In this document: piece after piece, positions 1-48,515 of the stretch
Numbering within the stretch: the first letter of the stretch is position 1
How the letters are laid out: every line of letters starts with the position of its first letter
Assembly: GCA_030615855.1 (NCBI GenBank)
Contig: JAUWYL010000007.1
Coordinates: 1-50,939, forward strand
Length of the DNA stretch: 50,939 bases
Source of the DNA: a bacterium
GTDB lineage: Bacteria > UBP18 > UBA7526
Reading direction: 5' to 3'
The notes under the pieces: generated by a model
Told to the model about the DNA's origin: nothing
Seen by the model: the letters and a program-made list of their open reading frames with translations, nothing else
Database searches by the model: none
Made by a program: the position numbers and the translations under genes

Positions 1-159
1 AGATAAACCGGCTCTTAAAAGATTATTGCCTATGGAATATTTAAATTCTTTTGGTAGTTTTCTATACACCTCAAAGATTTTATCTATAAACTTTAGGGCA
101 AATTGGTAGACCTTTAGCCTTTCAAAATCAAACTGAAAATCGTCCTCTTTTTCTTTCAT
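1..159 (-). CDS. Four-helix-bundle protein (23S rRNA IVP / TIGR02436, bAvd-like fold), 5' part; runs off the window
   Basis: Not in the ORF track. Manual translation from ATG at 159 gives MKEKEDDFQFDFERLKVYQFALKFIDKIFEVYRKLPKEFKYSIGNNLLRAGLS, which fits the family pattern F-E-x-L-x-V-Y-Q...L-P-K-E-x-K-Y...R-A-x-x-S. Confidence 0.8.
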   Translation of the reverse strand, partial: MKEKEDDFQFDFERLKVYQFALKFIDKIFEVYRKLPKEFKYSIGNNLLRAGLS

Positions 160-4669: not shown

Positions 4670-5335
4670 TTATGGATGTGCCAGATAGACAATGGTTTTT
4701 ATCTCACTCTCCTCAGTGAATTTGGAACTGGGGGCTTGGGCAGTCAGGGTAATCTCCACAGCATCGGGTAGTTCTCCCTCTCCACCAGAGGGATCAGCAT
4801 CCCAGCTTTCCTTCCAAGTATCCGCATCATCATCCTTATCATGATACCTGAAGTTCAATCCCGTAATATGGGAGGCTAACTCTTCTGCTGGGTCTCCTCC
4901 AGAGGTAATATCATCATCCGGGACATTGGGTATCTGCTTTCTGCGCATGAGCATATTCCCTGATAGATAGAAACCTAGTTCAACGCAGTCAAACTTTAAC
5001 TCGAGAGGAGTATAGGTGCTCCCATAATTATAACCATCCGGGGGATGGGCGATGGAGATGAAGTTCAGAGTATCGGGATTTGTATCGACCCCAACAAGAT
5101 AGATATCCTTTCCTGGGTTATAGTTTATATTGAGGGTGATTGCTCCCCGGATCTCCTCACTCATTCTGTCTAAAGCGATGCGTATATTCTGGTATCTCTT
5201 GGTCCTGGCCTCCCCCTTCTGCCAGGCATCCATGGCCATCTTAGAGACATTATAGATGGCCATGCCCAAAAGGGCGGTAATGACCAAAGCCACCATAAGT
5301 TCCAGTAGGGTTACCCCCTTTTGCTCCTTAATCAT
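4670..5335 (-). CDS. GspJ/PilW-like minor pilin
   Basis: MIKEQKG|VTLLELMVAL, RIALDRMSEEIRGA, LPDAVEITL. Start moved to ATG 5335. Confidence 0.8.
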   Translation of the reverse strand: MIKEQKGVTLLELMVALVITALLGMAIYNVSKMAMDAWQKGEARTKRYQNIRIALDRMSEEIRGAITLNINYNPGKDIYLVGVDTNPDTLNFISIAHPPDGYNYGSTYTPLELKFDCVELGFYLSGNMLMRRKQIPNVPDDDITSGGDPAEELASHITGLNFRYHDKDDDADTWKESWDADPSGGEGELPDAVEITLTAQAPSSKFTEESEIKTIVYLAHP

Positions 5336-5345
5336 AATAATCCCC

Positions 5346-5864
5346 TCAGTTATAGTTGGCCATGAGGGTAGTGAGATACACGCATCTCTGGCCGCTATGG
5401 CCACTCCCTGCCTTGTATGGCCACCAGACAGAGACCGTCACTTCCTTTGGATCGCTTCCCGAGGATATAGCCTGCCACTCGTATCTTGAGTAATAGCCAG
5501 GGGCAATGCTCTCGCTTGTCTCATTGGGAATGTTGGCATACCCTCCCCTCTTTATCTCCTCCATCCTCCTCTGGGCAAGGAGGGTGGCAGTGGTCAGGTC
5601 CTCCCCCAACTTGCTCGCCTTCAGTCCCATAGGCATAACACGCAAGAGGGCTAAGAGGGCTACGGCAAGAATGATAAGGGCGATCATGACCTCCAGAACC
5701 GTAAACCCCGCTTTCCTTGAATCGGGGAATCGGGGAATCGGGGTATCGGTAATTTTTCCCTTGTTTCCGCTTCTCCCATCTGCCCCGTAGGCTTGTCCTT
5801 CGGGGTTCCCCTTTTCTCCCTTTCCCTGATAACCTGATAACCTGATTACCTGATTACCGATCAC
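5346..5864 (-). CDS. GspI/PilV-like minor pilin with a long repeat-derived leader
   Basis: KAG|FTVLEVMIAL, ATLLAQRRMEEIK. GTG start preceded by GGTGA; the 53-aa leader is encoded largely by 8-mer repeats. Confidence 0.8.
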   Translation of the reverse strand: MIGNQVIRLSGYQGKGEKGNPEGQAYGADGRSGNKGKITDTPIPRFPDSRKAGFTVLEVMIALIILAVALLALLRVMPMGLKASKLGEDLTTATLLAQRRMEEIKRGGYANIPNETSESIAPGYYSRYEWQAISSGSDPKEVTVSVWWPYKAGSGHSGQRCVYLTTLMANYN

Positions 5865-5913
5865 TGTTTCACCTGCACGCTTTCTCCCCGTTTCTCTGTT
5901 TCATTACTTAAAC

Positions 5914-6564
5914 CTACCAGCTACTATATATTTTAACCCGAGCAGTAGCTTTGGCATTTTCTACCCGATACTTAACTTTCCCAGCTGTATCCTGCAGTTT
6001 TACGATTCCCTCATTGGCTGAGTCTGTAAGAGTGACTGTGCCTTTAAAGGTAAAGGTATGATGATAGGGGTCACTCGCTCCTCCTCCAATCACCTCATCT
6101 ATGACCACCACTTTGGGCAATTTTCTCTCGGAGCCCGGTTCTGGGTTCTTTGGAGGATAGGATAATGCGGGCTGAATCCAGACTACTTTATTGGTCTTAT
6201 CATAGACCGCATAGTACTCTTCTCTTAAAGTCATGGCCTTACTGTGGGCCATCCTCATGGTTGAGGCCACATCCCGGGCAGCATTCTTGACGCTCGTCCT
6301 GCGATAGGTCCCCTGGCCGTAGAAGAGTACCCCCCCAATGACAATGGCAATGATGACCACCACCACCATCATTTCTATAAGACTGAACCCGGCTTTCTTT
6401 GAATCGGAGAATCGGTGTGTTTCTGTATCGGTGTAACGGCGTATCGGTGTATCGGTGTAATTCTCTTTTATTACCTTACTCCGACACTCCCTCACTCCAT
6501 TACTCCGTTTCACCTGCCCACTTTCCCATTTTGCATTTTTAATTTTGCATTTTTCATTTTTCAT
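5914..6564 (-). CDS. GspH/FimT-like minor pilin with a long repeat-derived leader
   Basis: KAG|FSLIEMMVVV, AARDVASTMRMAHSKA. ATG overlaps the upstream stop (TGATG) with a GGAGG RBS. Paralog of 9658-10194. Confidence 0.8.
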   Translation of the reverse strand: MKNEKCKIKNAKWESGQVKRSNGVRECRSKVIKENYTDTPIRRYTDTETHRFSDSKKAGFSLIEMMVVVVIIAIVIGGVLFYGQGTYRRTSVKNAARDVASTMRMAHSKAMTLREEYYAVYDKTNKVVWIQPALSYPPKNPEPGSERKLPKVVVIDEVIGGGASDPYHHTFTFKGTVTLTDSANEGIVKLQDTAGKVKYRVENAKATARVKIYSSW

Positions 6565-7982
6565 CAGTCCTCCGGGATTTCCCTATAGTACCAGATTTTG
6601 CCTTTAACCGCCGGGGTAGCCTTTCCCCTGTTTATAATGATTCTGATCCTCTTCAAAGTCTCCTGACCGGATGGGGAAACATACCTCCCGGTTGATATTA
6701 TCTCAAAGAACTGGTTATTATGGGACTGGGGAGGGCCAGTAGGGCTATTGTTGAAGGAGAAGTTTGTGGTATAGGTCTTATCCGCAGCAAGTATCTCAAA
6801 GTCGGCATCATCGTCATTAACATCGGGTGTAGTGGGATTATTTGAGTCCCAGTTATCATACTCTGTCTCTGCATCCGGGTCAAAGTTATCCTTGATATTG
6901 TCCCTTACATAGTCGTTAGTGATGCTTTTTTCCGCAATCCGCACCGCCGTTGTATTCGGGTAGCCCCACTTGCGGACGTAATTAATAAATTCGTTAAACT
7001 CATCTTGGGCGCTACCCATCTCGTCCTGATTGGTCCGATCCAAAGTCCCATCATCCCAAGTATCAAGAAAGTAGTACTTCGCTGGGGAGCCACTTGAGGG
7101 AGGATTGAGGTCTATGTCCTGGATATTGAAAGGTTTTGAGGAATCGGTTTCGCTTCCGCTGTTGTCATCGTCCCGGTTGGTGTCTATGCCATCGAAGGGG
7201 TTATCGTCTGCTGTCCTTTCTATTCCATCGGCTCCAGCACGATAGGCAAGGATTGCTGTCACTACCCGGTCGATATTCGTCTCAGTTACTTTCAGTATGG
7301 CATAGCCAGGAGTTCCACTCTGATTCCTGCCAAAGGCAGCCTTCAGGGCCTTCTCATTTGCCGTATTGACATTTATAGGAAGACGGGTATCAGGGTTTGT
7401 AGGAAACTCTTTATGATAGACCTTTGCCACCTGATGATAGACTGAGAGGCTCTCCTCGCTTATATCATAGACGCAGGCTAATTCGTCAAGGGTCTCAAAG
7501 GGCCCATAAGTCTCTTTCTGATAGTTGACGATATTATTGACTTTTATAGTGCCTATATTTGGCAGCCCATCCAGAAGGTTCTTCCAGGAACTGTTGTCTG
7601 CTAAGGGATTATTGAGGCTCACCTTCCCTCCCTCATCATTTATTATGACGGCATAGTAGCCGAAGGTATTTCCATCCTCATCCGTCAAAGTAATCCACTT
7701 GGAATCCGCTGTTCCATCTCCATCGTTATCAACATCCGAACCACTGAAATAGGTGGCCCAATCCTCCTTTAGGGAATCAATGGTAAGATCTGTATCCCTC
7801 CTCAGCCAATAGACCGCATGGTCTATCCCGGCCTGGGTGATATACATAGCCTTCATATCGTCCCGATGGGTACGGGCGATGATGGGCTCCAAGCGCATCA
7901 TGAAGATGAAGGTGGTGCCGATGATGGCTAAGACGGCCAAGAGCCACATAGCCATAATCACGGCAACGCCCTTTTCTCCCAT
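6564..7982 (-). CDS. GspK/PilX-like minor pilin (second copy), Asp-rich
   Basis: MGEKG|VAVIM, AMYITQAGIDHAV, INVNTAN motif, DxDxDG-like loops (DVDNDGDG), FEIISTG...IWYYRE. ATG 7982 is coupled to the upstream stop. Confidence 0.75.
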   Translation of the reverse strand: MGEKGVAVIMAMWLLAVLAIIGTTFIFMMRLEPIIARTHRDDMKAMYITQAGIDHAVYWLRRDTDLTIDSLKEDWATYFSGSDVDNDGDGTADSKWITLTDEDGNTFGYYAVIINDEGGKVSLNNPLADNSSWKNLLDGLPNIGTIKVNNIVNYQKETYGPFETLDELACVYDISEESLSVYHQVAKVYHKEFPTNPDTRLPINVNTANEKALKAAFGRNQSGTPGYAILKVTETNIDRVVTAILAYRAGADGIERTADDNPFDGIDTNRDDDNSGSETDSSKPFNIQDIDLNPPSSGSPAKYYFLDTWDDGTLDRTNQDEMGSAQDEFNEFINYVRKWGYPNTTAVRIAEKSITNDYVRDNIKDNFDPDAETEYDNWDSNNPTTPDVNDDDADFEILAADKTYTTNFSFNNSPTGPPQSHNNQFFEIISTGRYVSPSGQETLKRIRIIINRGKATPAVKGKIWYYREIPED

Positions 7983-8728
7983 CAAAAGCCCCCAGTTAAA
8001 TCCTCTCCATAGCGGATGCCCGCCTTGACCATGGCGTGCAAGGTGGTCCCGGGATCGCTCTCATCTGTAGGATCGGCTTTGACCGTCAAAGTAATTTTTA
8101 GCATCCCGACACGGGATGCCGGTGGTCGATCATTAAAGTAGAGATAGGAAACAACACCTTCTGTACCGGGCATGGCGGCAGTTATTGGTTGGGAACCAGC
8201 ACTATGAAAACTATAACTTCCCTCACTTGTTTGGTAAGGAGGATTGAGCACTCTCTTATAAAGGGTATAGGTCTCGCTCCCCACCCCCGGCTCGCCAGAG
8301 TACCTGGAAAACTGAATCTTCTCCACTCCTTCTGTTCCATCTATAGGGACATAGAGGGTAATCCAGCGGCCCTCCCTCGCTGATCCTCCTTCCCCGAGTT
8401 CGAAGACAACATCTGGGGTATCTCCACCTACATCGGGTAGGGCCTGCCTGATCTCATTTACCATTCTCTCAAAGGCTATTCGGACATTCTGAATCAGTTC
8501 TACCCTCTCCTCTCCTGTCTTATAGGCCTTGGTTCCCATCTTAAAGACAGTATAGAAAGCAACCATTAACAGAGAGAGTAAGGCAACAGCGACCAGAAGC
8601 TCAACAAGGGTAATTCCCATTCTTTTTGAATCGGGGAATCGGAGAACCGGGGTATCGGGGTATCGGGGAATCGGGGTATCGGGGTTCCCTTTTTCTTCCT
8701 TTTCCTGATTACCTAATAACCTGATCAC
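7982..8728 (-). CDS. GspJ/PilW-like minor pilin with a repeat-derived leader
   Basis: KRMG|ITLVELLVAV, RIAFERMVNEIRQA; the leader contains DTPIPRYPDTPVLRFPDS. Confidence 0.78.
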   Translation of the reverse strand: MIRLLGNQEKEEKGNPDTPIPRYPDTPVLRFPDSKRMGITLVELLVAVALLSLLMVAFYTVFKMGTKAYKTGEERVELIQNVRIAFERMVNEIRQALPDVGGDTPDVVFELGEGGSAREGRWITLYVPIDGTEGVEKIQFSRYSGEPGVGSETYTLYKRVLNPPYQTSEGSYSFHSAGSQPITAAMPGTEGVVSYLYFNDRPPASRVGMLKITLTVKADPTDESDPGTTLHAMVKAGIRYGEDLTGGF

Positions 8729-8756
8729 TGGTCACTTTCCCACTTTCTATATTTTA

Positions 8757-9209
8757 TTACATCTTTTTCTCATAATCAGTAAAGAGGGTAACCAGTTTTA
8801 CGCTTCGCTCCCCACCATAGGGCTTATAGAAGACCTCAACCACAACTTTCTTAAGCTTGGGGTTGTTTACCGCATCCACATCACTAATTGTGGTCACCCG
8901 CTTGAACTGGAGATAATCAGTTATATCCCCATAATTCTCTGTGGTAGTGCCGCTGGATAGTTGGGCCCATCCCGTATTCCTTAATTCCTCTATCTTCGCC
9001 TGGGCCAGAAAGGAGGCCACCGTGGTATCTTGGGATATCTTACTTGCCCTGAGGCCAATAGGGAAGAGGTGCATGATGGCCAGTAGGCCAAAACCCAGGA
9101 CAATCACAGCAACCATGACCTCCAGAAGGGTGAATCCCGCTTGACGGGGAATCGGGGTATCGGGGAATCGGGGTATCGGGGTATCGGCGTAACAGAGTAT
9201 GGGGGTCAT
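8757..9209 (-). CDS. GspI/PilV-like minor pilin with a repeat-derived leader
   Basis: QAG|FTLLEVMVAV, ASFLAQAKIEELR. ATG 9209 overlaps the stop of the four-helix-bundle gene (ATGA). Confidence 0.78.
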   Translation of the reverse strand: MTPILCYADTPIPRFPDTPIPRQAGFTLLEVMVAVIVLGFGLLAIMHLFPIGLRASKISQDTTVASFLAQAKIEELRNTGWAQLSSGTTTENYGDITDYLQFKRVTTISDVDAVNNPKLKKVVVEVFYKPYGGERSVKLVTLFTDYEKKM

Positions 9210-9589
9210 TTGGAGATAGACCATTTGTCAGCAGTGTTAATCATTTTGACTAACTGACCAAGAATTTGTTCATATCGATTATCTAATTTCTGCCAGACGT
9301 CCTTTTTTATGTATTCCATGTGGAGTGCAAAGTCAAGCCAGCATTGTGTTTCGGCCGCCTCTCCTTCACTATCGCTGAGTTTGGAAATAAAGGCTGCTTT
9401 ATAGCGACGTTTTCTCCAGGCCTCCGCAATATTCGAACAGACAGAACGAGATGACCGACGCATCTGTTCACAAAGCGAATATCTCTCCTCTGGTGGAAAA
9501 GTTTTGCACAATTCGTGGATTTCCAATGCACATTCCATTGCCAACAGATATACCTCCAAATCCCTAAATGTCTCTGCATATCTACTCAT
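9206..9589 (-). CDS. Four-helix-bundle protein (23S rRNA IVP / TIGR02436 family)
   Basis: FRDLEVY, FPPEERYSLCEQMRRSSRSVCSNIAEAWRKRRY, KLSDSEGEAAETQCWLDFA. Confidence 0.9.
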   Translation of the reverse strand: MSRYAETFRDLEVYLLAMECALEIHELCKTFPPEERYSLCEQMRRSSRSVCSNIAEAWRKRRYKAAFISKLSDSEGEAAETQCWLDFALHMEYIKKDVWQKLDNRYEQILGQLVKMINTADKWSISK

Positions 9590-9590
9590 C

Positions 9591-9657
9591 CCTTACTCCC
9601 ATACTCCGTTACTCCCTTACTCCACCACTCTGTTTCTCCCATTCTCCGTTTCATCCC
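9591..9657. repeat. Octamer repeat arm (xxTACTCC) upstream of the four-helix-bundle gene
   Basis: ccttactcc-catactcc-gttactcc-cttactcc; 9598-9612 is the reverse complement of 9189-9203 at 14/15 positions. Confidence 0.85.
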
Positions 9658-10194
9658 TTAATCTTCCCAGCTATCATAGATTCTCGCCCGGGCAGTCGGG
9701 GATTTAAGCGTTACTTTATAGAAGTTCTTGAGCCCTTTGTCTTTTAACCAAACACTTCCCGCGGTAACCGTGCTTTTGGGTGAGAATTTATGATAAGCCG
9801 TCCCGGTGTCTGTATCCGCTGGAACGGGATCCGGAGTGCCAGGGTTCGATGCTTGGCCTCCCGTGCCTGCTTTGACCCGGGCGATGATTGCCATATCGGG
9901 AAGGGCTTGCTCCGTGCCAAAGTCCGGATTCTTCCCTGAAGTAATATAGATGGAATAGGATTGGACCCAGATGGTTTCATTATTACAGTCATAGACTGCA
10001 AGATAATTTTCTCTCTCTGTGACCGCCTTCTGCCGGGCGAGGCGCATGACGTTCACCACATCCCTGGCCGCCACCTTGACGCTCGTCGTCTCCCTGAAAT
10101 TCTTGAATATAGCAAAGGCCGCCAGGGCCATAAGAGCAATAATAAATATTACGGTCATTAGCTCTATAATAGAGAAGCCATTTCTTTTATTCAT
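9658..10194 (-). CDS. GspH/FimT-like minor pilin
   Basis: MNKRNG|FSIIELMTVI, AARDVVNVMRLARQKAV. Confidence 0.8.
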   Translation of the reverse strand: MNKRNGFSIIELMTVIFIIALMALAAFAIFKNFRETTSVKVAARDVVNVMRLARQKAVTERENYLAVYDCNNETIWVQSYSIYITSGKNPDFGTEQALPDMAIIARVKAGTGGQASNPGTPDPVPADTDTGTAYHKFSPKSTVTAGSVWLKDKGLKNFYKVTLKSPTARARIYDSWED

Positions 10195-10371
10195 TATAAT
10201 ACTTCACGGATGAGCACGGATTGACTAAACGGATTAGCACTGATTCAATCACCAACGGGGATGTTCTGATAATCTAGGAAATCGAGCTGCGCCCGTCTGG
10301 CCGTCGGACAGACAACCCTTCAACGTATAACGAAAAACGAAACTGGTTAACTGTTATGTATGATTGCCCCC

Positions 10372-10450: not shown

Positions 10451-10930
10451 TTAGGGACTCTTGAACTCACCAGGGTTGACGTAGACTACAGAGTAGGTAG
10501 GCGCACCTTCATACTCTCCACCCCTGCACCAGATGGTGTATCTCGAAGGCCTGCCAGAGGTAACAGCTTGGTATCCGTAGGGGTTACCCCAGGGATCATC
10601 CGGCCAATTGCTGGTGTGTTTTCTGAACTTCATATAGGGGCCGGACCAGTTATCACCGATTGATTCAGCATCTGTTACCAGTGATTTTAGCCCGTAGCTG
10701 CCAGATGTTGACCCGGGCTTAGTGTCGCTACCACTCAAGGGATACTGGTCGCAGTCCAGGTAGTACATCTCGCAGGCAGTAGTCATGCTATCCAGGTCTG
10801 CCCAGCCACCGCCCTCCTTGGCCTTCCTCTGCTGCATCATGAACCTTGGTAGGGCAACGGCAGCTAAGATCCCGATGATGACTACTACCACCATCAACTC
10901 AATCAGCGTAAAACCCTTCTCTCTCTTCAT
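10451..10930 (-). CDS. gspG: GspG-like major (pseudo)pilin
   Basis: MKREKG|FTLIELMVVVVIIGILAAVALP, WSGPYM and DPWGNPY motifs; strong GAGGAGGTGA RBS before ATG 10930. Confidence 0.8.
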   Translation of the reverse strand: MKREKGFTLIELMVVVVIIGILAAVALPRFMMQQRKAKEGGGWADLDSMTTACEMYYLDCDQYPLSGSDTKPGSTSGSYGLKSLVTDAESIGDNWSGPYMKFRKHTSNWPDDPWGNPYGYQAVTSGRPSRYTIWCRGGEYEGAPTYSVVYVNPGEFKSP

Positions 10931-12399: not shown

Positions 12400-13623
12400 T
12401 TAGCCCGACATGGCGCTCATCTGGAAGATGGGAAGGTACATGGCGATTACGATGAAGCCCACCACCAGTCCCATACCCAGTATTAGGATAGGCTCTAAGA
12501 CGCTGGTTAGGGCGGCCACCGTAGTATCTACCTCCCGGTCGTAGGCATCGGAGACCTTTATGAGCATGTTATCCAGGGCGCCCGTCTCCTCACCCACGGC
12601 GATCATATGGACTACCATGGGAGGGAAGACCGGGCTCTTCCCTAAAGGACCAGCAATGGACTCCCCTTCCCTTATGCTATTATGGACCGCCACCATGGCC
12701 CGGGCTATCACCTCATTCCCTGCGGTATCTCTTACAATTAAGAGGGCCTGTAAGATGGGGACCCCACTGGTAATCAGGGTTCCTAAGGTGCGGGCGAACC
12801 GGGAGAGGGCGCTCTTCTTCACCAGTTCTCCCAAGATGGGTATCCTGAGTTTGATCTTATCTGCCTGATACCTCCCCTCCTCCTTCCTCACCCACATTCT
12901 GTAGACAGCAATCAGGACCAGGATGGCCAAGAGGTTCACCCACCAGAAGCCCCTCAAGAAGTCGCTTATCACCATCATTATCTTCGTGGGAAGGGGAAGG
13001 GTAAGAGCAACCTCCTCAAACATGCCGACGAAGGTGGGGATGATGGCGATGGTCAAAAAGAGGACCACTCCTATTCCCACCATAATGACCAGGGCGGGAT
13101 AGACCATGGCCCCCTTCACCTTGGCCCTCACTGCTTGGTCCTTCTCGCTGAACTCCGCCAACCGGGCCAGGACGACCTCTAAGACCCCGCCTGCCTCACC
13201 AGCCTTTATCATGTTGACATAGAGTTTGTTAAATGTCCTGGGGTGCTTGGCTAAGGCATCGGAGAAGGTGCCTCCTCCCTGAACGCTGGCGGCGATATCC
13301 TTTATCTGGACCTTAAGATTGGGGTTCTCTGTCTGTTCGCCTAAAACAGTGAGGCTACGCAGCAGGGGAAGTCCAGAGTCGATGAGGGTGGAGAGCTGCC
13401 TGGTGAAGGTTACGATATCTTTTCCTTTTACTCTCTTGCCCGCAAACATTCCTAAGAAGGTATCTAATATTCCACCCTTGGCTGCCTTCTCCTCCCTGAC
13501 CTCCAGGGGAAGATAGCCCATATCCCTTAAACGTCCTAAGGCGAGCCTCTCATTATCCGCATCCAGGGTTCCTGCTACCTCTGTCCCTGCCTTATCCAGG
13601 GCCTTGTAAGCAAAAGTGGCCAT
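12400..13623 (-). CDS. pilC: Type IV pilus / T2SS inner-membrane platform protein PilC/GspF
   Basis: FTRQLSTLIDSGLPL, AGEAGGVLEVVLARLA, GEETGALDNML, EPILIL. Confidence 0.93.
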   Translation of the reverse strand: MATFAYKALDKAGTEVAGTLDADNERLALGRLRDMGYLPLEVREEKAAKGGILDTFLGMFAGKRVKGKDIVTFTRQLSTLIDSGLPLLRSLTVLGEQTENPNLKVQIKDIAASVQGGGTFSDALAKHPRTFNKLYVNMIKAGEAGGVLEVVLARLAEFSEKDQAVRAKVKGAMVYPALVIMVGIGVVLFLTIAIIPTFVGMFEEVALTLPLPTKIMMVISDFLRGFWWVNLLAILVLIAVYRMWVRKEEGRYQADKIKLRIPILGELVKKSALSRFARTLGTLITSGVPILQALLIVRDTAGNEVIARAMVAVHNSIREGESIAGPLGKSPVFPPMVVHMIAVGEETGALDNMLIKVSDAYDREVDTTVAALTSVLEPILILGMGLVVGFIVIAMYLPIFQMSAMSG

Positions 13624-47127: not shown

Positions 47128-47361
47128 AACCAGAGTGAACCATGTAATCATAAGGATCCCAACGACCACGCCAAAAGCTCCTAGAAGGAGCCCGATCTTT
47201 CCGGCGCGAGTGGTTCTGGTCAAGAAGCCTGTGACGAGGGCAATCGCGCTGGCCGCGAGCGACCCCCAGAAAAGGCAGGCCGATTGGCCCCAACTCAAAA
47301 CGAACACAAAGTAACCTAATACTGCCAAGACCCCGAAGATAATCGAAACGGTGGACATCAC
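47122..47361 (-). CDS. Small three-TM membrane protein (gene cassette)
   Basis: GAGGAGGT RBS, three hydrophobic segments, stop codon inside GTCTAAC. Confidence 0.65.
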   Translation of the reverse strand: MMSTVSIIFGVLAVLGYFVFVLSWGQSACLFWGSLAASAIALVTGFLTRTTRAGKIGLLLGAFGVVVGILMITWFTLVV

Positions 47362-47421
47362 ATTACCTCCTCTCTAAACGAGTTCTTATTGAATTCCTTC
47401 GTCTTATTTTGTCACAAATTT

Positions 47422-47976: not shown

Positions 47977-48515
47977 ATTTAATTTTTTTCAATTGGTGCA
48001 ATTCGGTTTTTATAAATTCGGCGGCCTCAATATTAAACAAAACAACATTAAAACCAACTTGATTCAATGCGCTTTTGTACCGCAAACCATCATATTTTTG
48101 CTGCTTAAAAACCTCCGATAAATATTGTGTATGACAGTAATCCCATACAGGAAAATTTGGATCTGTAGGTTTGGCAAACGACTCATTAATTTTCTTCCAT
48201 ATATGGTTTTCAATCGAATGATCATCTATCTCCTTGGTCATATCAACTAATTTCACATGGTGGCCCCATTTCAGAAGCTTTATATGGAATTTTTTCCAAA
48301 ATATTGTCTTTGGAATAATCATTCCCTAATCTAGCTCTAAACAATGATATCCCTTTGCTTAAATTAATCTCCCTTTGCAAAGCAGATTTGATTAAAAAGG
48401 TTATGAAGTTATTTTCTTTTGCATTCAGTACGAATCTATTGGCCACTCGTCTTCGGATAACAAAACGTGCCCATGCATCTTTGTCATCAAAATTAAGTAG
48501 ATTGTTTTCAGACAT
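47954..48515 (-). pseudogene. RES-domain protein, frameshifted with an apparent internal deletion
   Basis: Frame 1 LFRARLG...EMGPP stops early; frame 2 continues VKLVDMT...TQYLSEVFKQQKYDGLRYKSAL...NVVLFN. The usual GRAN...YLY...AEVRP core is missing. Confidence 0.65.

Follow-up and report, generated by a model that had tools for sequence, protein, structure and literature searches.

How do minor pseudopilins come to carry leader peptides of 25-59 residues that are built from short tandem repeats, and are such leaders made at all? This question is raised by a pseudopilin locus in the window, the 50,939-nt stretch of DNA analysed here, which is contig C6 of the metagenome-assembled genome (MAG) G000 (1.375 Mb, 45 contigs, 44% G+C); sequencing runs that contain the window DNA are labelled as sediment metagenomes. 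The explanation that we consider likely is that a dispersed hairpin-forming element took the place of the short segment that encodes the leader in minor pseudopilin genes, or inserted into it. Joined to the Phe codon at position +1, the element would recreate a class III cleavage site. The prepilin would be made with a hydrophilic leader of 25-59 residues that remains cytoplasmic and is cleaved off by the A24 prepilin peptidase of G000 (gene at C3:48372-48722; PF01478, 84 bits), which would leave the mature pilin unchanged. Only in-frame copies of the element would survive.

The minus strand of the window carries a GspG-like gene followed by two GspH-I-J-K-like pseudopilin sets. In the list below and throughout, leader length is counted from the start codon through the Gly that precedes the cleavage site, and the site itself is written as a slash.

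10451..10930, minus strand: GspG-like major pseudopilin (PF08334 and PF07963); leader MKREKG/F, 6 aa
9658..10194, minus strand: H1, GspH-like minor pseudopilin (PF07963); leader MNKRNG/F, 6 aa
8757..9209, minus strand: I1, GspI/PilV-like minor pseudopilin; leader 9135-9209, 25 aa, MTPILCYADTPIPRFPDTPIPRQAG/F
7982..8728, minus strand: J1, GspJ-like minor pseudopilin; leader 8615-8728, 38 aa from GTG
6564..7985, minus strand: K1, GspK-like pseudopilin; leader 5-6 aa
5914..6564, minus strand: H2, GspH-like minor pseudopilin; leader 6388-6564, 59 aa from ATG
5346..5864, minus strand: I2, GspI-like minor pseudopilin; leader 5706-5864, 53 aa from GTG
4670..5335, minus strand: J2, GspJ-like minor pseudopilin (PF11612 and PF07963); leader MIKEQKG/V, 7 aa
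3318..4655, minus strand: K2, GspK-like pseudopilin; 10-aa leader

The names are kept as GspH/I/J/K-like because the best NCBIfam scores are below the curated cut-offs. No pseudopilin of the locus reaches those of TIGR01708, TIGR01707, TIGR01711 or NF037980, though these are the best matches (for example, 38.3 vs 44.35 for GspI, 42 vs 80 for GspH and 25.9 vs 64.85 for GspJ). The scores of the GspG-like protein with TIGR01710 (80.7 bits), of H1 with TIGR01708 (38 bits), and of K1 and K2 with NF037980 (39.5 and 74.7 bits) are under the cut-offs as well. PF07963 (N_methyl) is above its cut-off in all seven genes of the G, H, I and J types, and the profile begins at G/F each time; the scores are 31.9 bits in I1, 23.7 in J1, 37.0 in H2 and 29.3 in I2. 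All four of these proteins have the class III signal as it is defined by PF07963 and TIGR02532, with Gly at -1, a hydrophobic residue at +1, Glu at +5 and about 20 hydrophobic residues.

The I1 leader runs from ATG 9209 to Gly 9135 and would have 30 aa if translation started at ATG 9224. The J1 leader extends from GTG 8728 to Gly 8615, and the sole other start is an ATG at -2 ('MG/I'). In H2, which is read from ATG 6564 to Gly 6388, in-frame GTG codons would give leaders of 42 or 36 aa, while GTG 5864 is the only canonical start of the I2 leader, which ends at Gly 5706. The canonical start (ATG, GTG or TTG) nearest to G/F is no closer than 25 codons in I1, 36 in H2 and 53 in I2. The leaders are hydrophilic in composition, the numbers of K+R and D+E residues being 2/2 in I1, 7/6 in J1, 16/8 in H2 and 9/5 in I2. 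The arrays located by Tandem Repeats Finder (TRF) coincide with these leaders:

5719-5749, I2 leader: GAATCGGG, 3.9 copies
5825-5858, I2 leader: CCTGATAA, 4.2 copies
6424-6459, H2 leader: TGTATCGG, 4.5 copies
6474-6506, H2 leader: 4.1 copies
6527-6564, H2 leader: CATTTTT, 5.4 copies
8628-8685, J1 leader: GAATCGGG, 7.1 copies
9145-9206, I1 leader: CGGGGTAT, 7.8 copies

An earlier reading made from the sequence alone (the sequence-only reading) had reported leaders of 25-59 aa in these four minor pilins against 5-10 aa in the other five, and had taken the long ones for translations of repeats of 7-8 nt. Both points were confirmed when the sequence was reread, and the peptides had been assigned to the right units. 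The start-stop coupling proposed for at least two genes was also found, at H2, whose ATG overlaps the K1 stop (TGATG), and at I1, whose ATG 9209 overlaps the stop of a PF05635 gene (ATGA).

Short tandem arrays abound in G000. TRF gave 1880 rows, mainly of period 7 (480 rows) or 8 (347 rows), and merging of arrays with 6-10 nt period left 747, of which 517 lie outside the 1235 longest-ORF gene models (ORF, open reading frame) that make up 87% of the DNA. The units are highly diverse, with 328 canonical units in 726 rows. The view that the leaders derive from intergenic repeat families holds for the AAAATGC-type unit, which is general (57 loci), and fails for the CCCCGATW array, which is not. 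Its pattern, GATWCNCCGATWC, here called the 3' array, is present at only 8 loci in 1.375 Mb, 5 of them in pilin-like leaders:

The four long leaders of the window
Contig C44: leader of a K-like pilin
Contig C7: ORF of a PD40-Omp85 protein, in frame
Contigs C2 and C23: intergenic, one locus each

The 3' array is part of an element of about 100-180 nt. The 5' arm is purine-rich and consists of imperfect 8-nt units (GGAGAAAC / GGAGTAAG), and the 3' arm is pyrimidine-rich (GATTCCCC / GATACACC). At its 5' end the element often has AGGTGAAAYA followed by (A/G)TG AAA CGG AGA, that is, a Shine-Dalgarno (SD) site and a start codon. The 3' end, GAT TCA AAR AAR GCG GGN, encodes D-S-K-K-A-G, a ready-made cleavage site. 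In alignment A2 the C2 copy and five pilin leaders form one element, from '(A/G)TG AAA CGG AGA' to 'GAT TCA AAR AAR GCG GG', and because this alignment includes the intergenic C2 copy, the D-S-K-K-A-G end with its Gly codon belongs to the element. The C2 copy (C2:20440-20530) is at an unlinked site; it encodes VKRRRGETEKG...FPDSKKRGGRR and ends in ATGA on the start of the next gene. Reading in three frames found one frame free of stops across the element in the C7 and C2 copies, while the C23 copy is not open throughout.

The pattern GATWCNCCGATWC matched 6, 16, 0, 12 and 13 times in the related genomes G001-G005, respectively, vs 0-1 for a reversed control. These searches returned 30 loci, of which 22 sites were examined; for another 17 matches no locus was given. 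A pilin motif adjoins just 2 of these 22 copies, both at the known pilin sites of G001; the element is not pilin-specific. Pilin leaders are the commonest coding site in the genus, with 5 of 8 loci in G000, where about 15 pilin-like genes are found among the 1235 models, and copies inside one cluster are probably not independent. The other coding site is in a 973-aa ORF (G000:C7:27016-29937; L022:217-3138, minus strand), where the element is in frame between PD40 beta-propeller repeats and an Omp85 barrel. The same site is filled, also in frame, in G002:C43 (L044) and G005:C76 (L052), with differing versions of the element, so that it is occupied in three genomes from two genera.

Adjacent arrays have inverse-complementary units in 22 of 311 pairs vs 1.4% of random pairs; this signal is modest, and not all arrays are claimed to be hairpin arms. 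Upstream ORFs that end in ATGA seemed to show a spike, which was discarded as trivial, since genes often have A at +4. A further repeat lies within the I2 leader:

5783..5805, no strand assigned: 23-nt palindrome-like unit CCCCGAAGG...CCTACGGGG

A search of both strands found this unit at C2:20398, C43:16882, C44:64513 and C6:5783, and a related copy is present in the opposite orientation upstream of H1 in G001.

To compare the leaders between relatives, K1 was used as an anchor for orthologous loci, which were found in G002 (79% amino acid identity) and G001, both of the same genus, and in G003 (same family). The K1 search also gave four metagenome contigs, with 85-96% DNA identity in the matching stretches; one of them, L018, has no pilin N-terminus and was not used. 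The comparison shows that the long leaders are recent and vary between relatives:

J1 in G001: MKARG/V, with ATGA overlap
J1 in G000, L019 and G002: CCCCGATW-array leader
J1 in L020: unrelated TTTCTCAC-array leader, nearest ATG at -23
I2 in G001: 7-codon leader from GTG (printed VLRSSKG/F)
I2 in database protein P0001, 90% identical: MLGSSKG/F
I2 in P0004 and P0007: leaders of 50 aa; in P0008, 49 aa; in P0003, 57 aa
H2 in G002 and L017: arrays 5' of a good proximal GTG, 7-codon leader (printed VLKNRKG/F)
H2 in G001: long leader

Leader types are not tied to one gene: the type ENYTDTPIRRYTDT.xHRFPDSKKAG is found on H2 in G000 and on I2-type pilins in P0004, P0007 and P0008. Database searches with the leader alone retrieved, besides the queries, two relatives for the H2 leader and one for the I1 leader of G002, and because there are so few, these two leader types are rare among public proteins of the length range searched. 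The major pseudopilin gene of G001 (L014:185-277) carries 54 nt inserted in frame between MKRGKG and F+1, which gives a 24-aa leader. The insertion opens with one GATTCACC unit and contains no start codon, and both the SD site and the 'ATG AAG AGA' start are conserved as in G000 and G002. It is the least ambiguous candidate for a leader insertion that is translated.

An assembly artefact is ruled out by contigs of run X1 and by the independent assemblies L019, G002 and P0003-P0008. The X1 contigs, which were assembled independently, match 5300-8683, 8656-9180 and 9153-10300 with 0 differences; this run may be the source sample, and the match is therefore a check of the assembler only.

Translation of the long leaders from the upstream starts is likely, judging from frames, start sites and selection. 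An in-frame ATG, GTG or TTG is retained in all 40 complete pilin N-termini from nine sources (one more, in L020, is truncated where its contig ends). For 16 of these 40 there is no start nearer than 14 codons upstream, and in the same spans the other two frames hit stops in 13/16 and 9/16 cases. Alignment of the J1 leaders of G000, L019 and G002 revealed indels of +24 and -21 nt (between G002 and G000), both multiples of 3. Openness is not automatic in arrays, since out of 1494 array-strands 465 are free of stops in three frames and 343 in none. Of 37 array spans of at least 120 nt upstream of genes, only 2 are open in the frame of the gene, and of 117 spans of 75-120 nt, 24 are. Purifying selection acts on the mature parts. 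The ratio of nonsynonymous to synonymous divergence (dN/dS) for I1 is 0.18 between G000 and G002 and 0.03 between G000 and L019, long leaders being present in all of these lineages, and for J1 it is 0.21-0.26 between long-leader lineages; H2 and I2 gave 0.23-0.37 in comparisons with G000, with saturated dS.

SD energies were computed with the usual anti-SD sequence assumed, as four short motifs failed to locate a 16S 3' end in the assembly. The median dG is -6.8 at 181 confident starts vs -2.7 at 600 random positions. Among the short-leader genes, values of -16.3 were obtained at ATG 10930 of the GspG-like gene, -8.3 for J2 and -16.3 for K2. Three of the upstream starts have normal SD sites, namely ATG 6564 of H2 (-9.5, GGAGGA), GTG 5864 of I2 (-6.8, AGGTGA) and GTG 8728 of J1 (-6.1). 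The sequence-only reading had called the leaders probably real, and the comparative data, from in-frame starts and frame-keeping indels to selection on the mature parts and SD sites, speak in its favour. Of the two findings that it had named as fatal, a start just before G/F was not seen in I1, H2 or I2 for canonical codons, and the orthologs in close relatives have ordinary short leaders instead of the same long ones.

Several observations weigh against this explanation. All the genomes compared are MAGs, and the 16 long leaders are not independent, their count of distinct architectures being about 8-10. ATG 9209 of I1 has no SD (dG -2.7) and relies on the ATGA coupling. In-frame ATT codons are present at -6 in I1 and at -11 in I2, and J1 of G000, G002 and L019 retains the ATG at -2 as a possible start. 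A hairpin that follows directly after the start codon, as in H2, could hinder translation. The passages on leader length in PMC4471445 give 6-26 aa for prepilins, with up to 18 for type IVa; the I1 leader at 25 aa fits, and those of J1, H2 and I2 at 36-59 aa exceed this range. Finally, 320 genes have an array cluster just 5' of the first following start; 87 of these clusters are open in the frame of the gene, 89 in frame +1 and 52 in frame +2. There is no genome-wide excess of the gene frame over frame +1 in this set, and because of these counts the arrays as a class are not obviously coding.

In a rival reading the arrays would be untranslated 5' leader RNA and translation would start near G/F, at a non-canonical codon or with a very short leader (ATT -6 in I1, ATT -11 in I2, ATG -2 in J1), the upstream openness being incidental. 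We regard this as unlikely. The candidate codons do occur in frame, arrays 5' of genes behave genome-wide as non-coding, and in G002 and L017 the H2 arrays precede a good proximal GTG. However, H2 of G000 has no near-cognate start among the 12 codons before G/F, and no proximal candidate has an SD, the ATG at -2 of J1 having a dG of +0.3 in pyrimidine-rich surroundings. J1 of L020 and the GspG-like gene of G001 have no proximal start whatever. Retention of the frame in all 16 long leaders, with stops in the other frames of most of these spans and indels in multiples of 3, would be left unexplained by this reading.

The I1 leader is associated with an additional gene, which is preceded by an upstream ORF (uORF):

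9586..9654, minus strand: 22-codon uORF MKRRMGETEWWSKGVTEYGSKG, encoded by GGAGTAAG-type arrays (arrays 9589-9647)
9206..9589, minus strand: PF05635 four-helix-bundle / 23S rRNA intervening-sequence protein gene, 127 aa (PF05635, 108 bits; TIGR02436, 104 bits)

The PF05635 gene is nested between the arms of the leader element (9590-9660 and 9133-9208), whose duplex has a predicted energy of -56.7 kcal/mol. It is absent from the I1 site in L019, G002 and G001, where the I1 leader starts 'TAA GGG ATG AAA CGG AGA' directly after the H1 stop. In G000 the corresponding ATG, 3 nt past the H1 stop, opens the uORF, and a coupled chain follows: the uORF stop overlaps the PF05635 start (ATGA), and the PF05635 stop overlaps ATG 9209 of I1 (ATGA). 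A minor X1 contig joins 9144 to 9642 and omits the PF05635 gene, and in run X2 the uORF array has a variant of +24 nt (3 units) at 9593.

G000 has ten PF05635 hits, 8 of them full length:

C44:16764-17078
C45:9562-9879
C26:20996-21310
C35:26782-27084
C30:13741-14067
C2:23502-23819
others

For 7 of the 8 full-length genes the flanks pair more strongly than shuffled controls. The flanks consist of short tandem arrays with a unit sequence of their own at each locus (e.g. ATGCGTT vs AACGCAT), and the arms of the hairpin element resemble them. These loci look like stem-loop cassettes in mRNA spacers, similar to the intervening sequences (IVSs) of 23S rRNA, in which, as described in the relevant passages of PMC4990558, an S23p ORF lies between complementary termini and the whole is excised by RNase III. 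The cassettes of G000 share with the 23S rRNA IVSs of Coxiella and Leptospira treated there the PF05635 ORF between complementary stem-forming termini, and the genome encodes RNase III. In contrast to those IVSs, the copy at I1 is in the leader region of a pilin operon, between H1 and I1, rather than in helix 25 or 45 of 23S rRNA; its stems are made of short tandem units that vary between copies, and its ORF is coupled in translation to its neighbours at either end. The motifs tried did not reveal any rRNA in the G000 assembly. The window (1-123) and G000:C7 (1-123) both begin with the same truncated match to the N-terminal part of PF05635, with 27.2 bits in each, and these matches at two contig starts suggest that assemblies break at such cassettes.

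We speculate that the element could be kin to IVS elements and form a mobile, self-contained cassette for class III leaders, with its SD, start codon, single open frame and K-K-x-G end, which would repeatedly overwrite the leaders of minor pilins, sometimes together with a four-helix-bundle gene. The hairpin could then exert structural or RNase III control and set a strain-specific dosage of tip pilins. This extension is tentative, and we think it on balance doubtful.

The long leader or the RNA hairpin could also be functional in itself, by throttling translation of low-abundance minor pilins or as an RNase III site in the operon mRNA, and would then not be just selfish DNA that is tolerated. 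In the consensus fold of A2, 28 predicted pairs join the start-codon region of the element to its 3' end. The RNA of the H2 leader is unusually stable relative to shuffles (z = -3.95) and that of I2 moderately so (z = -2.1), the arms resemble the RNase III-cut stems of the IVSs covered in PMC4990558, the RNase III gene is present, and pilin-like leaders hold 5 of the 8 copies of the 3' array in the genome. Yet compensatory changes were found in only 2 of the 28 pairs, with a covariation term of +0.56, and the leader RNAs of I1 (z = +1.3) and J1 (z = -1.0) are no more stable than shuffles. Close orthologs lack the element, and only 2 of the 22 copies examined in relatives are at a pilin start. 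A function of the leader or hairpin thus seems rather improbable to us.

The sequence-only reading had also proposed that gain or loss of units of 7 or 8 nt between the start and G/F switches individual tip pilins on and off, in the manner of contingency loci. Neither unit length is divisible by 3, the arrays are placed after the only start and before the mature part, and strains do vary in array length. In these respects the genes are similar to phase-variable contingency loci, where tandem units of a length not divisible by 3 separate the start codon from the functional part of a surface-structure gene. Known phase-variable tracts are far longer than the perfect tracts in the leaders, which reach 2.4-3.1 units at most, the remainder being imperfect. 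G000 and L019 have J1 leaders of equal length (the L019 contig is 92.7% identical to the window across the stretch), and the I1 leader is identical in G002 and L019. All observed indels keep the frame (+24, -21, +24 and +54 nt), and contig-level comparison found no out-of-frame allele among the 40 complete pilin N-termini. In the contigs compared, the leader arrays show neither the long perfect tract nor the frame-shifting length polymorphism of a contingency locus, and phase switching, which we consider very unlikely, is not supported.

That the four genes are decaying pseudogenes, which lost their native start codons to repeat insertion and are dispensable in the presence of a duplicated H-I-J-K set and a third pilin cluster on C44, is scarcely credible and is ruled out by the dN/dS values: the mature parts are intact, with 0.03-0.26 in I1 and J1 and 0.23-0.37 in H2 and I2, the frames are open up to SD-preceded starts, and both I-type genes of the locus have long leaders, so that their loss would leave it without a GspI-like subunit.

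In the explanation that we prefer, invasion of the leader-coding segment by a tolerated element, the element is classed with in-frame selfish palindromic repeats, a known kind, here in a cleavable class III leader. As a dispersed, hairpin-capable repeat with intergenic copies as well as in-frame copies inside ORFs, it has the defining features of elements similar to the Rickettsia palindromic elements (RPEs). Work by Ogata and colleagues from 2000 is said to have found RPEs in frame inside protein-coding genes. The element resembles RPEs, and small palindromic repeats or MITEs (miniature transposable elements with inverted repeats) in general, as a short dispersed hairpin of this distribution; it adds tens of residues at tolerant sites of proteins, and its coding copies use its open frame. 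The likeness is one of behaviour only. The element differs from RPEs in that its arms are made of imperfect 8-nt tandem units, it may carry a PF05635 gene, and it has its own SD and start codon and a 3' end that codes for a prepilin cleavage site. In coding DNA it favours a leader peptide, which is cleaved away, over the surface of a mature protein.

Long class III leaders are known from type IVb and Tad pilins; the passages of PMC4471445 that deal with them give 15-30 aa, and 26 aa for Flp1. The proteins of the window share with these a hydrophilic leader that ends in Gly, F, I or V at +1, Glu at +5, a hydrophobic helix and an A24 peptidase gene in the genome. In contrast to them, the carriers are minor pseudopilins of the type II secretion system (GspH/I/J-like), which normally have leaders of 5-10 aa. 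Three of the four leaders (36-59 aa) are beyond the range stated in those passages, and the leaders are encoded by repeats and unconserved even within the genus. A literature search at the level of the titles listed found no description of prepilin leaders that are built from repeats or contain cassettes of the IVS type.

Should the long leaders be synthesised and then cleaved off, the class III leader would be a nearly cost-free site for selfish repeats inside genes, and prepilin peptidases would accept leaders about twice as long as those given in reviews. The locus connects IVS-type four-helix-bundle cassettes with the short tandem arrays that fill the spacers of this lineage, two subjects that are usually treated apart, and both are seen to reshape translation starts within an operon. 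Such genes will be overlooked or given a wrong start by gene callers and pilin predictors that assume short leaders, as in the database ortholog P0002, which was called from an internal Met.

Class III leaders had been regarded in the sequence-only reading as a safe harbour for repeats. The tolerance of these leaders stands, but the idea is too narrow, as the element is in frame in the PD40-Omp85 protein of three genomes and arrays occur in likely Sec signal peptides; in upstream arrays genome-wide, openness of the gene frame does not exceed that of frame +1, both being above +2. In the likely Sec signal peptides, arrays seem by eye to encode part of the hydrophobic core, e.g. MKVKRLFFILFFLSLFTVHCSLFTVSAWA:

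C44, near 47277-47403
C44, near 48230-48305
C30:52615-52738

Other cleavable N-terminal peptides may thus host arrays too.

The third pilin cluster of G000, at C44:29800-33000 (L023), also has arrays at its starts. The leader of its J-like gene is 17 aa long and includes a TTTCTCAC-array insert (MSKKLTFSLSHRLTRNG/F), that of its K-like gene is 29 aa long and built by the element (MKRRQGEREKRGKSPIHRFPDSPINSQRG/MALV), and in its H-like gene the arrays are located 5' of a proximal TTG.

Two further genes of the pilin region in the window were recognised by eye only:

12400-13623, minus strand: GspF-like gene
Between the GspF-like and GspG-like genes, minus strand: ORF of a periplasmic-binding type

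Both GspK-like proteins of the window have a ComEA-type helix-hairpin-helix region (PF12836), with 45.6 bits in K2 and 26.2 bits, just below the cut-off, in K1.

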